In this document: in pieces, positions 3,442 through 9,220 of the stretch | Layout of the letters: each line of letters opens with the position of its first letter | Position numbering within the stretch: the first letter of the stretch is position 1 | Assembly (NCBI GenBank): GCA_963810095.1 | Contig: CAWEMM010000007.1 | Span: 64,001-128,000 of the forward strand | DNA length: 64,000 nucleotides | Source of the DNA: an uncultured Chloroflexia bacterium | GTDB taxonomy: Bacteria; Chloroflexota; Anaerolineae; CG2-30-64-16 | Reading direction: 5' to 3' | Program-made: the position numbers and the translations under genes | Notes under the pieces: model-generated | Database searches by the model: none | Seen by the model: the letters and a program-made list of their open reading frames with translations, nothing else | Told to the model about the DNA's origin: nothing

Positions 3442-4686
3442 ATGAGTAATGCCCACGCGCTGATTGTCGGGATTGCCGGATATCCAAACGTTGCTCCACT
3501 GCCCGACACCGTGTTGGCCGACGCCAACGACGTGGCCGACGTTCTCACCGACCCCAATCTCTGCGCCTATCCGCTCAACCAGGCCTGCCTCCTGCTCGAC
3601 GGCGAGGCGACGCTGCCGAGGCTGCGTTCCGAGTTGGCGAACCTCGCGCAGCGAGCCAATAACGATTCCACCGTCTTCATCTATATCTCGGGCCACGGCG
3701 GCCGTATCGATTCCGGGCCGGCGAAAGGGGAGTACCTGCTGCCCTACGACGTATCGCTCGACCCCGGGGTTGTGCCCCCGCAGATTCGCGCCGAGACGGC
3801 CATGTCGGGCGCCGAGTTCGCCGAAGCGATGGCCAAGATACCCGCCCGCAAGCTGCTTGTGGTCTTCGATTGCTGCCATGCGGGCGGGCTGGGCGCGACG
3901 AAGGATGCGACCGGTCCCGCGCTCAAGGCCGGCCTCTCTGAGGACTACTACGGCCGTTTGGCCGAGGGTCGGGGCCGCGTCATCCTCGCCTCGTGCCGGG
4001 GCAACGAGTTCTCTTACGTGCTGCCCGGCGCCCCCAACAGCCTGTTTACGTCGCACCTGCTGAGCGGCCTGCGGGGGAATGCGCCGTCACCGGCCGGCAT
4101 GATTCGCATCTTCGACCTCTTCGGCTACCTCCAGCCGAAGGTCGTGGGCGACCAGGCCTCGCAGCACCCCATCTTCAAGGCGGAGATCGAGGACAACTTC
4201 CCGGTCGCGCTGTCGGTGGGCGGCAAGGGCGTGCAGCTGCCGCCGCCGGCCCCGCCCGCGGGCGACGGCTTCGCCTACGATGTCTTCCTCAGCTACCGCG
4301 ACCAGGACCCGGACAAGACCTGGGCTCGCAAAACGCTGCTGCCGCGGCTGGAGCAGGACGGCCTGAAGGTGATCGAGCAACGCCGCTTCCGGCTGGGCGC
4401 GCCGATCGTCAAGGAGATGGAGCGGGCAGTGGTGCAGAGCCGTTACACGCTCTCCGTACTCTCGCCGGCCTATATTGACGGGAACTTCACCGATCTTGAC
4501 TCCGTCCTTGCCGAACATCTGGGGCTTGAGAACAGCCAGCGCCGCCTCGTGGCCGTGATGCGGGAGAACTGCAAACCGCGGCTTGGGATGCGTGCGCGCA
4601 TGTGGCTGGACATGACCGAGGATACCGAGTTCGACGACAACCTGGAGCGATTAGTCTACGAGCTGAAGCAGCCGCCAGTTATGTGA
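3442..4686 (+). CDS. Caspase-like peptidase (C14) fused to a C-terminal TIR domain
   Basis: AHALIVGIAGY, YISGHG and VFDCCHAG (His/Cys dyad), SLFTSHLLSGLRG; Pro-rich linker; YDVFLSYRDQD..W..LLPRLEQDGLKV..RFRLGAP..VLSPAY TIR. Confidence 0.88.
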   Translation: MSNAHALIVGIAGYPNVAPLPDTVLADANDVADVLTDPNLCAYPLNQACLLLDGEATLPRLRSELANLAQRANNDSTVFIYISGHGGRIDSGPAKGEYLLPYDVSLDPGVVPPQIRAETAMSGAEFAEAMAKIPARKLLVVFDCCHAGGLGATKDATGPALKAGLSEDYYGRLAEGRGRVILASCRGNEFSYVLPGAPNSLFTSHLLSGLRGNAPSPAGMIRIFDLFGYLQPKVVGDQASQHPIFKAEIEDNFPVALSVGGKGVQLPPPAPPAGDGFAYDVFLSYRDQDPDKTWARKTLLPRLEQDGLKVIEQRRFRLGAPIVKEMERAVVQSRYTLSVLSPAYIDGNFTDLDSVLAEHLGLENSQRRLVAVMRENCKPRLGMRARMWLDMTEDTEFDDNLERLVYELKQPPVM

Positions 4687-4709
4687 AAGGTCGGGTGTGG
4701 GCCAGCAGT

Positions 4710-7700: not shown

Positions 7701-9220
7701 CAACCTATCCCCTAAACCTCGGCGCAGTCTCGGGGATCGACCTGGCGCCCGATCGAGCGCGTTTTGCCGTTTTCGGGGAGAACGGCGACGTCGACCTCTT
7801 TAGCGTGGACGGAACACAGCAGTGGACCCTGCGGGGGCACAGCCGTTCGGTGGTGCAGGCGGCCTGGAACGGCGATCTGCTGGCGACCGGGGGTTCGGAC
7901 GGCATGGTGCGCGTGTGGGATTTGGCCGAGTCGGCCACGCCGCCGCCGGTTGCGGAACTCGCGGCCGCCGCGCCGGGCGCGAGTCTGGGCCAGTCGTACG
8001 TGAACGCGCTCGAATGGCGGCCGGGAGGGCGCCTGTTGGGCACAGCCGAGGACGGTTCCGCCCGCATCTGGCAGGTGCTCGACGGCGACGGCCGTCCGGT
8101 GTGCAGCGGCGGCTGGACGACCGGGCCCACGAAGACGGTCTGCGCGGCAGACAGCCGGGCGCTGCGCGGCCACCAGGACCGGCTCGATGTACTGCGGTGG
8201 TCGAACGAGCAGACCTTGCTCAGCACCGATGTCACCGGGGCCGCCCGCAGGTGGGACCTGCAAACGGGCGAGACATTCCTGGTTTCGGGCACGCCCGACG
8301 TCGAGCGGCGCGCGCTGTGGAGTCCAGACGGGTCGATGGCGTTCGCGTACGATGCACCGGGTGGACCGAATGGCCCCGGCGACGGCGTCATCACCGATGT
8401 GCGAACCGGCGCTCGGCAGGCAACGGTCAAAGGACCGGTGCTGTGGGCCCACTGGTCGGACCTGGGCTTGCTCGTCGCCCGTGAAGGGACGGACCTGGTT
8501 CGCATCGACCCGACCACGGGAGAAGACGGAGACAGATATACCGGAGCGCCGGCGGGCGACCAGATCACCGATGCCGCCGTCAGTGGATCGCAGTTGGCCG
8601 TTGCGGACAAGGGCGGCGCGATCCACGTGTGGACCGCCCCCGGCGCCGCGCCCTCTGTGCTACAACAAGATGAGGCCGGACCCGTCGGGCGGCTGGCATG
8701 GTCGCCGGACGGCAAGCGCCTGCTGGGCGCGGGCACGCACGTCGTTCTGTGGGACGTAGCCGGCCGGGAGGAGGTATGGAAGACGTTTGAGAGCGGGCTT
8801 GGCTCGTGCCGCCCCGCATTCAGCCCGGATGTGAAGCTCATCGCGGGCTGCATCGACGCGCAGACCTACGTCTGGCAGGCGGACAAGGGGACGACGCTCT
8901 GGTCCGCGTGGACGGGCAATGGGGACGGGAAAGGCGTGACCTGGCGCACTGCCCCGACCTTCGACGGCGCCGGGTCACGGCAGATCCTGCTCTCGTCGGC
9001 AGGCAACCTGGCCCAGTTGTGGGATTGGGACGCCCGCGCGTTGATCGGTGAGTACCGCCAGGCGCCTGAGCTTAACCTTGCTACTATCAGCCCGGATGGC
9101 AAGTGGCTGGCGACGACGAACGATGTTGGGGAGATCCGGCTCTGGAATCTCTCGTTGGGCGATCCGCAATCGCTGCTCCACTCTGCTGCGGGCCGCATTA
9201 CGCGCACCTTTGAGAAGTGA
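4710..9220 (+). CDS. TIR - nSTAND1 NTPase - transmembrane helix - WD40 repeat protein; apparent frameshift near 5545-5590
   Basis: N-terminal TIR (YSLFIIHAPEDEAWV..RFRLGAS..LILTPEF); PPYPGMRPF..YFYGR; Walker A GASGSGKSSL; Walker B LLFTVDQFEEVF read in the shifted frame; MRADFY, GALPLL, ARRVFLRLV; hydrophobic IATTAALVLLILLAIFIW; many WSPDG/GH..VRVWD repeats. Confidence 0.85.

Follow-up and report, generated by a model that had tools for sequence, protein, structure and literature searches.

In the adaptor coupling set out by Kaur et al. 2020 (eLife, PMC7159879), a constant effector and changing sensors share a repeated small domain, and the nSTAND1 family of NTPases was named by Kaur, Burroughs, Iyer, and Aravind (eLife 2021, PMC8195603). 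Bacterial Apaf-1-like proteins with an N-terminal caspase have been described (Nature 2026, PMC13581612), and a survey of cyanobacterial orthocaspases (PMC8283722) gives TIR_2 with a single protein only. Here, we describe a gene pair from an uncultured Chloroflexia bacterium (GCA_963810095.1, contig CAWEMM010000007.1, positions 64,001 to 128,000 of the forward strand; this stretch of 64,000 nucleotides is hereafter the window). Gene 1 encodes a caspase-TIR protein, and gene 2 encodes a protein with a TIR, an nSTAND1 NTPase, a hydrophobic helix, and a WD40 array, so that the repeated domain of the pair is a TIR. On balance, the evidence leans toward a two-gene receptor and effector module for cell death or immunity, in which the activated sensor would cluster its TIRs into a scaffold that docks and activates the caspase-TIR protein.

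Domain architecture and linkage of the pair

Genes 1 and 2 are co-oriented, and the ATG of gene 2 at 4710 lies 23 bases past the gene 1 stop, the spacing also given in a first-pass annotation made from the letters of the window. The features of the pair are as follows.

3442-4686, + strand: gene 1, caspase-TIR effector, 414 residues from the ATG at 3442 (Pfam Peptidase_C14 and TIR_2)
3454-4200, + strand: Peptidase_C14 (caspase/metacaspase-type) domain, residues 5-253, E 7e-15
4282-4656, + strand: effector TIR domain (TIR_2, residues 281-405, E 4.7e-18, 66.3 bits, cut-off 28)
4710-5545, + strand: gene 2, first frame, with the TIR (4737-5099) and the N-terminal part of nSTAND1 (5157-5447) (Pfam)
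5541-5545, + strand: frame break in gene 2, the sequence being one base short (phase 0 to phase 2), from alignment to the intact relative P0124
5546-9220, + strand: gene 2, second frame, with Walker B, the remainder of nSTAND1, the helix, an Ala-rich linker, the WD40 array, and the stop (Pfam)
6527-6583, + strand: single predicted membrane helix of gene 2, LIFRIATTAALVLLILLAI (19-mer, Kyte-Doolittle mean 2.58)

The gene 1 protein matched Peptidase_C14 (PF00656) with 55.8 bits, against a gathering cut-off of 21.4, and the closest solved structures to this domain were metacaspase-4 (E 2.4e-9) and metacaspase-1. His85 (SGHGG) and Cys145 (DCCH), the presumed catalytic dyad of Peptidase_C14, were invariant in 22 of 22 aligned relatives. 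With both Pfam matches over their cut-offs and the dyad invariant, the earlier description of gene 1 as a C14 caspase with an intact dyad and a C-terminal TIR is upheld. The predicted structure of the protein had a mean predicted local distance difference test score (pLDDT) of 65.5, with residues 146-273 mostly below 50, which makes the model too uncertain to use in fold comparison. In the 22-sequence alignment, the relatives begin M-P-x-M-x-N-A-H. Translation from the GTG of position 3433, which has GAAGGCAGG 6-14 bases before it, would prepend M-P-S to the annotated Met. Because this extended N terminus matches that of the relatives, GTG 3433 may be the true start of gene 1; the database protein begins at the ATG.

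In the gene 2 protein, TIR_2 matched residues 10-130 (E 3.3e-10, 40.9 bits, cut-off 28). The nSTAND1 profile (PF20703) was matched in two parts, over positions 1-89 in the first frame (98.4 bits, cut-off 27.1; Walker A GASGSGKS) and over positions 128-378 in the second (E 8.4e-54, 184.1 bits; Walker B HLLFTVDQFEE), ending at about 6388. The second frame is open from 5519, and the listed open reading frame runs from 5591 to 9220. WD40/beta-propeller families span approximately 6998-9217, and the other Pfam NTPase matches of gene 2 were weak ones to AAA_16, nSTAND3, and nSTAND6. Profile searches thus place Peptidase_C14, TIR_2 in both proteins, and nSTAND1 above their gathering cut-offs and recover the WD40 families; Pfam and hydropathy agree with the first-pass annotation on the order TIR, nSTAND1, one hydrophobic helix, and WD40. 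The labels "apoptosome" and "TLR" that it attached to the pair hold only as analogies, since the NTPase is nSTAND1 rather than NB-ARC, and NB-ARC, CARD, and LRR were all absent from the Pfam matches of genes 1 and 2.

The predicted membrane helix stands out clearly in the gene 2 protein, in which the next-best hydrophobic segment reached a Kyte-Doolittle mean of 1.04; it is preceded by 4 Arg in 15 residues and followed by 2. A hydrophobic 19-mer was found in 37/37 full-length TIR-nSTAND1 partners (those with at least 250 residues past the NTPase), with Kyte-Doolittle means of 1.69-3.32 and a position 40-77 residues past the NTPase module. Lys plus Arg in the 15 residues before this helix averaged 4.9, versus 2.2 after it, and were more numerous before it in 32 proteins, equal in 4, and fewer in 1. 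Because the ATPase must be cytoplasmic and positive charge marks the inside, the WD40 part is predicted to be outside the membrane, and the sensor domain probably lies outside the cell.

To survey the neighborhoods of the pair, we scanned one representative genome per species (185,579 species), which yielded 456 loci with a caspase-TIR relative; the genome-locus counts given here cover the best 80 of these 456, with flanks of about 8 kb, which were searched across six frames with hidden Markov models built from the TIR and NTPase parts. Of 8000 scored candidates, 888 matched gene 1 at E <= 0.001, and among the 120 matches listed, the relatives were about 412 residues long, had a caspase and a TIR, and were 55-65% identical across phyla. 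All 80 loci had the caspase with its own TIR. A second TIR lay within about 8 kb at 66/80 loci and on the same strand at 63/80, a TIR was fused to nSTAND1 at 47/80, and intergenic gaps were tens of bases at many loci. Among the 14 loci lacking a second TIR, 8 were cut within 2.6 kb on one side and 6 had full flanks. A metagenome scan with gene 1 gave 67 loci, the best of them 65% identical. On metagenome contigs, a second TIR was found at 25/43 loci and a TIR-nSTAND1 at 23/43; when at least 3 kb was present on both sides (n = 18), these numbers were 14 and 13. This repeat is not fully independent of the genome survey, because some contigs may share organisms with the genomes. Altogether, the synteny (66/80 and 25/43) indicates that the pairing is more than chance, and the co-occurrence that the first-pass annotation proposed to look for is present. 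Moreover, the 6.13-Mb genome that contains the window has only two TIR_2 matches, both in the pair.

By record titles, the hosts of the best 80 loci were mostly filamentous Cyanobacteria and Chloroflexota, roughly 30 each, and the others included Thiothrix/Thiolinea, Actinomycetota, Planctomycetota, and Acidobacteriota. A near-full-length gene 1 match (coverage of at least 372/414 residues) was present in 4/40 relatives and in 0/7 genomes of the same genus, a patchy distribution that is typical of conflict systems. Pairwise distances of the caspase, the two TIRs, and the NTPase were correlated over 46 loci (Mantel r 0.37-0.83), with 0/2000 permutations reaching the observed values; thus, the two genes travel together.

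These data bear on whether the two genes are coupled at all. Gene 1 could be a self-contained caspase-TIR effector or toxin and gene 2 a separate one-protein TIR-STAND, the two being neighbors since conflict genes cluster. Six of the 80 loci do lack a second TIR within full flanks, and single-gene STANDs with N-terminal TIR effectors are known (bioRxiv 10.64898/2026.10.19.760177, PMC10907252). Nonetheless, we regard this explanation as very improbable: same-strand adjacency at 63/80 loci extends over many phyla, often with gaps of tens of bases; the pair holds the only two TIR_2 matches of its genome; the distances of the two genes correlate (r 0.37-0.64; 0/2000 permutations), so that the genes move together; and the sensor TIR lacks the Glu described below in 46/46 cases, which makes it an improbable effector on its own.

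While the caspase-TIR protein is constant, the partner that carries the second TIR varies and may be a TIR-nSTAND1-WD40 or TIR-nSTAND1-FGE-sulfatase protein, a TIR-TPR protein, a TIR-FGE-sulfatase protein, or a TIR protein with a propeller-like part. WD40 families followed the helix in 24/38 TIR-nSTAND1 proteins, the window included, and P0236 is an example with FGE-sulfatase. A TIR-TPR partner of 918 residues occurs at locus L004, and a TIR-FGE-sulfatase protein without NTPase occurs at L047. A three-gene form (L008) has a TIR protein, an nSTAND1-WD40 protein without TIR, and the caspase-TIR protein. In Chloroflexota, a four-gene form (L027 1966-9248 and, by open reading frame sizes, also L037, L041, L046, L069, L079, and L080) consists, in order, of a Glu-bearing TIR protein of about 556 residues with a Sortilin-Vps10-like match, a protein of about 1100 residues without a Pfam family, a LysM protein of about 310 residues, and the caspase-TIR protein. 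Two cyanobacterial loci, L012 (5814-16223, on a Calothrix plasmid) and L018, have a larger cluster, in which a 706-residue caspase protein, the caspase-TIR protein, and a PG_binding_1-TPR protein of about 1010 residues are followed by TIR-nSTAND1-WD40.

Fused forms also occur. Caspase-TIR-TIR occurs in one open frame at L062 (7938-9725) and in G026:C37 (16903-18618), giving proteins of 595 and 620 residues, respectively. Furthermore, the genome of the window itself has Peptidase_C14, nSTAND1, and WD40 in one gene, on the - strand of G000:C7 at about 511050-517480 (L087 1552-7984); the reading frame of this gene shifts once, in GC-rich DNA a few codons past Walker B. Direct caspase-nSTAND1-WD40 fusions are what a split, adaptor-bridged version predicts, and the window pair looks like such a split version, joined through its two TIRs.

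The two TIR domains and their possible coupling

We compared the two kinds of TIR in an alignment of 80 caspase-linked and 68 partner TIRs. The fourth position past the conserved aromatic residue that opens helix C, mapped through alignments with Toll-like receptor (TLR) TIRs and TcpB and here called the Glu column, presumably corresponds to the catalytic Glu of the NAD-cleaving TIRs of SARM1 and TcpB. Its occupancy was as follows.

Caspase-linked TIRs (n = 79, window left out): E in 76, Q in 3
Window gene 1: D, as also in its two closest aligned relatives, P0007 and P0008
nSTAND1-fused TIRs (n = 46): E in 0; S, G, I, V, L, F, T, or A; A in window gene 2
Other partner TIRs (n = 20): E in 13

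Thus, the Glu of NADase-type TIRs is retained by nearly all caspase-linked TIRs and absent from all nSTAND1-fused ones, and in the window it is replaced by Asp in gene 1 and by Ala in gene 2. Because Glu occurs in 0/46 of them, the sensor TIRs probably do not produce a nucleotide messenger, in keeping with a role as adaptors. With Glu in 76/79, the caspase-linked TIR may be a second enzymatic effector and more than an adaptor. The best solved matches to the family profile of the effector TIR were the TIRs of TLR15/2, TLR1, and TLR6 (E 8e-16 to 1e-12), well ahead of the bacterial AbTIR (E 4.5e-5).

The favored model runs as follows. Gene 2 would encode a type II single-pass membrane protein, with its TIR and nSTAND1 ATPase in the cytoplasm and its WD40 array (in some relatives an FGE-sulfatase-type or other domain) outside. 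A ligand or an envelope perturbation at the outer domain would lead the STAND module to bind nucleotide and oligomerize, which would cluster the N-terminal TIRs of the sensors; having lost the Glu, these would serve as a scaffold only. The caspase-TIR protein would then dock on this scaffold, its TLR-like TIR making TIR-TIR contacts, and docking would raise the local concentration of the C14 protease and thereby activate it by proximity. In most relatives, the Glu-bearing TIRs would also be assembled into an NAD-cleaving array. The outcome would be cell death or arrest. We more tentatively put forward a narrower version, in which a widespread bacterial membrane STAND receptor with an outer propeller or lectin-like sensor signals through its ATPase to a dead TIR that nucleates the TLR-type TIR of the caspase. 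Such a receptor would be a hybrid of apoptosome and Toll/MyD88 that works by protein assembly rather than by a messenger, possibly with a link of descent to TIRs of the TLR1/2/6 type.

The retained Glu also invites a signal-based, Thoeris-like explanation, in which the sensor activates the effector TIR to produce a nucleotide from NAD. This nucleotide, rather than docking, would turn on the caspase, either in cis or in trans, and the sensor TIR would only help assembly. In its favor are the 76/79 caspase-linked TIRs that keep the Glu and type IV Thoeris, in which the TIR product N7-cADPR activates a caspase-like protease (PMC13243611; bioRxiv 10.64898/2025.12.03.692087). We nevertheless consider it unlikely. 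The clade of the window (window gene 1, P0007, and P0008) has Asp at the Glu column; the nucleotide-sensing domains SLOG, Macro, and SAVED were found in neither the gene 1 nor the gene 2 protein; PADLOC returned no ThsB or other Thoeris match for the two genes; and a messenger would not need the Glu-less TIR that the sensor keeps in 46/46 cases. The contrast with a Thoeris messenger that the first-pass annotation drew is in line with the Glu column of the sensor TIRs.

To model the docking step, the sensor TIR (alignment of 39 sequences) was folded together with residues 272-414 of gene 1, which contain the effector TIR (alignment of 22). The complex reached an ipSAE of 0.58 (0.60, 0.58, and 0.56 in the individual runs), against 0.00 for the best of three controls, with a partner pLDDT of 80 and a contact agreement of at least 94%. 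In the calibration of the pass mark, 58/80 solved complexes and 2/110 mismatched pairs reached it; at ipSAE <= 0.60, it was reached by 7/80 solved complexes and by both of the passing mismatches. The prediction tool rates a score in this range as more often wrong than right unless the contact is likely beforehand, and the fold lends weak support to the predicted TIR-TIR contact. The recruitment model in the first-pass annotation is supported in part: the conserved unit, the Glu-less sensor TIR, the fusions, and the helix agree with it, and the contact itself has weak support in silico at an ipSAE of 0.58.

The range of this score is one of several points that weigh against the docking model. 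The pass may have been learned from solved TIR-TIR complexes, which are in the PDB. The Mantel r between the two TIRs (0.43) is not above that between the caspase and the sensor TIR (0.64), which means that no TIR-TIR-specific signal of coevolution exceeds linkage, and by eye, the effector-TIR and sensor-TIR classes appear mixed among loci. At the 6/80 loci with full flanks but no second TIR, the effector can exist without a neighboring partner. Membrane insertion of the sensor is predicted from hydrophobicity and charge. In 32/46 sensor TIRs, an Asp or Glu stands one position after the Glu column, and HMMER aligned EEL of window gene 2 to REL of TcpB through a two-residue gap; because of these two observations, the loss of activity in the sensor TIR rests on the alignment. 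By alignment, animal TLR TIRs, which are not known to be NADases, keep the Glu at this column, and the residue therefore does not prove NADase activity. Finally, gene 2 is frame-broken in this assembly.

The frame break and the surroundings of the pair

The break lies at or beside a run of four A residues (5541-5544). The first-pass annotation had reported a frameshift at 5545-5590; the break itself is present in the assembly, and its place moves to or next to the A4 run, at the low edge of that range. The relative P0124 has TIR_2, nSTAND1, and WD40 in one frame of 1455 residues. The first frame of gene 2 is 56% identical to its residues 1-234, and the second frame is 60% identical to its residues 249-1455 over 1227 aligned residues. 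About 278 open codons precede the break and about 1225 follow it, and the motifs are kept on both sides. Given two such long open frames with conserved sequence, any inactivation of gene 2 would be recent. A programmed frameshift was rejected as unlikely, because no X XXY YYZ slippery heptamer was seen by eye at the break and the relatives are encoded in one frame.

Reads and related contigs were sought for the same place. Among public sequencing runs searched with 4700-6700, the best share of sampled words was 0.24, and none reached half. Contigs from the four best-matching runs did not span 5541-5545 and gave a 39-base piece, with 5 differences, at 5560-5598; when metagenomes were scanned with the part of gene 2 in the first frame, no relative was found. 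The assembly itself (6.13 Mb, 16 contigs, 88.5% complete) has at least 74 adjacent same-strand frame pairs that match consecutive parts of one paralogue, a count that is a lower bound. For 52 of these pairs, the distance between the DNA ends is within 30 bases. Homopolymers of at least 5 were near 13% of the 52 tight junctions, versus 5.8% of random coding places, a mild enrichment. ACR_tran, sought as a yardstick for frame breaks, was not found in this 88.5%-complete genome. Breaks are thus common, through either frequent assembly errors or an abundance of pseudogenes; because of the at least 74 paralogue-supported breaks, an assembly error is a live option for gene 2.

In the other case, the break would be real, the receptor a recent pseudogene, the caspase-TIR protein an orphan, and the module dead in this genome, which is compatible with the receptor and effector model for the family. 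We give this a substantial chance, a little short of even. The break is present in the assembly, a single break near Walker B likewise interrupts the second caspase-linked nSTAND1 gene of this genome, and a loss of suicide genes would be plausible; set against this are the two frames, which are otherwise open, 56-60% identical to the intact relative, and in possession of their motifs, as well as the many paralogue-supported breaks that make error possible.

The surroundings of the pair include two further features.

3356-3384, + strand: sigma-70-type promoter-like site, TTGACA-17-TATAAT, 12/12 consensus matches
9236-10837, + strand: possible third gene of the transcription unit, 533 residues, beginning 15 bp past the gene 2 stop

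The perfect TTGACA-17-TATAAT upstream of the pair, reported previously, was found as described. Two promoter-like sites occur in all in 1-16000, a GC-rich region (0.62-0.71), versus a mean of 1.4 in shuffles; because shuffles yield similar counts, the scan by itself does not show function. No terminator-like site was found on the + strand between 3384 and 10981. The 533-residue protein has an N-terminal hydrophobic anchor or signal, a Cys-rich middle, an SH3_3 domain (E 4.6e-8), and a Pro-rich tail. Its gene is perhaps cotranscribed with the pair, but its membership is doubtful, because it is not conserved beside the pair at other loci.

Three other genes lie nearby. Divergent from the pair, on the - strand at 2100-3266, is a gene whose product looks secreted and combines three LysM repeats with a CAP domain. 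Downstream, on the + strand, are genes for a protein with a Chlamydia-PMP-type repeat match (11034-12623, E 2.7e-5) and for a 927-residue Peptidase_C25 protein of the gingipain family (12907-15690, E 5.9e-84). The LysM-CAP, SH3_3, PMP-repeat, and C25 neighbors had no tblastn match at other loci of the pair, and nothing was seen that links the PMP-repeat and C25 genes to it.

Peptidoglycan-binding genes stand beside the pair in three Pfam-examined loci, namely, the window (LysM-CAP, SH3_3), L027 (LysM), and L012 (PG_binding_1-TPR). The L027-type LysM protein is encoded directly upstream of the caspase-TIR protein and has no detectable similarity to the LysM-CAP protein of the window; because they are not conserved by sequence, these neighbors only hint at envelope sensing. 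They fit a variant of the receptor and effector model, compatible with it, in which the role is not antiviral and the outer propeller senses envelope damage, kin or nonkin contact, or a developmental cue and triggers programmed death in filaments. The sensor is predicted to be extracytoplasmic, and record titles assign most of the best 80 loci to filamentous Cyanobacteria, Chloroflexota, Thiothrix, and Actinomycetota. This role is possible but rather doubtful: such neighbors occur in only three of the Pfam-examined loci, are not conserved by sequence, and the patchy distribution fits defense genes equally well.

Comparison with known systems

When the pair was searched against named defense systems with PADLOC and NCBIfam, every match was either to a generic model or below its cut-off. 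PADLOC matched gene 1 only with its generic "caspase" model and with PDC-S66 (TIR part), and gene 2 only with PDC-S66 and mad3. The EACC1-caspase two-gene system was considered and rejected: gene 1 scored 91 bits against NCBIfam caspase_w_EACC1, under the cut-off of 140, and no small EACC1 membrane gene lies in the 58 bases that separate the promoter-like site from the gene 1 start. The texts searched gave no description of, or experiment on, a caspase-TIR protein paired with a TIR-nSTAND1-helix-sensor protein, and the eLife source-data tables may list the pair. The pair is thus a variation on a published theme, unnamed in the texts and libraries searched.

The closest theme is that of the effector-associated-domain (EAD) systems (PMC7159879, PMC8195603), in which the N-terminal domain of a STAND or related NTPase is repeated in an adjacent caspase or other effector gene, as in the window. 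These systems are likewise enriched in filamentous or multicellular bacteria, and a homotypic bridge has been proposed for them by analogy with Death-fold adaptors. The difference lies in the repeat, which is an alpha-helical EAD or Death-like domain there and a TIR here; TIRs are treated in those papers mainly as NAD-processing effectors or signal generators. TIR-ParA systems (FxsC/FxsT type; bioRxiv 10.64898/2026.10.19.760177) resemble the family of the window pair in joining a TIR with an active site to an NTPase-sensor whose TIR lacks it. Their inactive TIRs have been proposed to serve in multimerization, type II membrane receptor-like versions with outside sensors exist, and the preprint mentions, as rare variants, STAND fusions and forms in which the constant TIR component bears a caspase. 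In contrast, the NTPase of the window pair is nSTAND1 alone, with no ParA/CbiA-type family among the Pfam matches of gene 1, gene 2, and their neighbors, and a C14 caspase on the Glu-class TIR is the rule (80/80 loci).

As in the bacterial Apaf-1-like STANDs (PMC13581612) and the apoptosome, a STAND NTPase with a WD40 sensor would here control a caspase-family protease. The window caspase is separate, however, and would be bridged by TIRs, whereas caspase-9 is bridged by CARDs; the NTPase is nSTAND1 and not NB-ARC/AP-ATPase, and its predicted sensor side is the outer face of the membrane. Type IV Thoeris (PMC13243611; bioRxiv 10.64898/2025.12.03.692087) also combines a TIR and a caspase-family protease in an immune operon, but its free TIR enzyme makes the N7-cADPR that activates a TIR-less protease. 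In the window pair, both proteins carry a TIR, the sensor TIRs of the family have the Glu in 0/46 cases, a STAND NTPase is present, and PADLOC reports no ThsB.

New here are the Glu dichotomy, the conserved helix after the NTPase, and the caspase-nSTAND1-WD40 fusion in the same genome. The family is large (456 loci), biased toward filamentous hosts, and present in cultured cyanobacteria (among them Calothrix brevissima NIES-22, on plasmid2, Cylindrospermum sp. NIES-4074, Planktothrix sp. PCC 11201, and Scytonema sp. NUACC26), with catalytic and interface residues that can be mutated, so that the origin of proximity-activated caspases and of TIR adaptors is directly testable. The bacterial STAND sensors known from immunity read phage proteins in the cytoplasm; if the model is true, sensing outside the cell can also be coupled to a STAND ATPase. 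Similarly, the bacterial TIRs known so far are NAD-consuming enzymes or messenger synthases, and the model would mean that bacterial TIRs can act as pure docking modules, as in animal Toll signaling. Like animal TLRs, the predicted sensor protein would have a repeat domain outside, a single membrane helix, and, in the cytoplasm, a TIR to recruit a TIR-bearing partner. Animal TLRs are type I proteins with LRRs outside and a C-terminal TIR, and they recruit a kinase adaptor, whereas the window sensor would be a type II protein with an N-terminal TIR, WD40 outside, and an ATPase between the TIR and the membrane, recruiting a protease.

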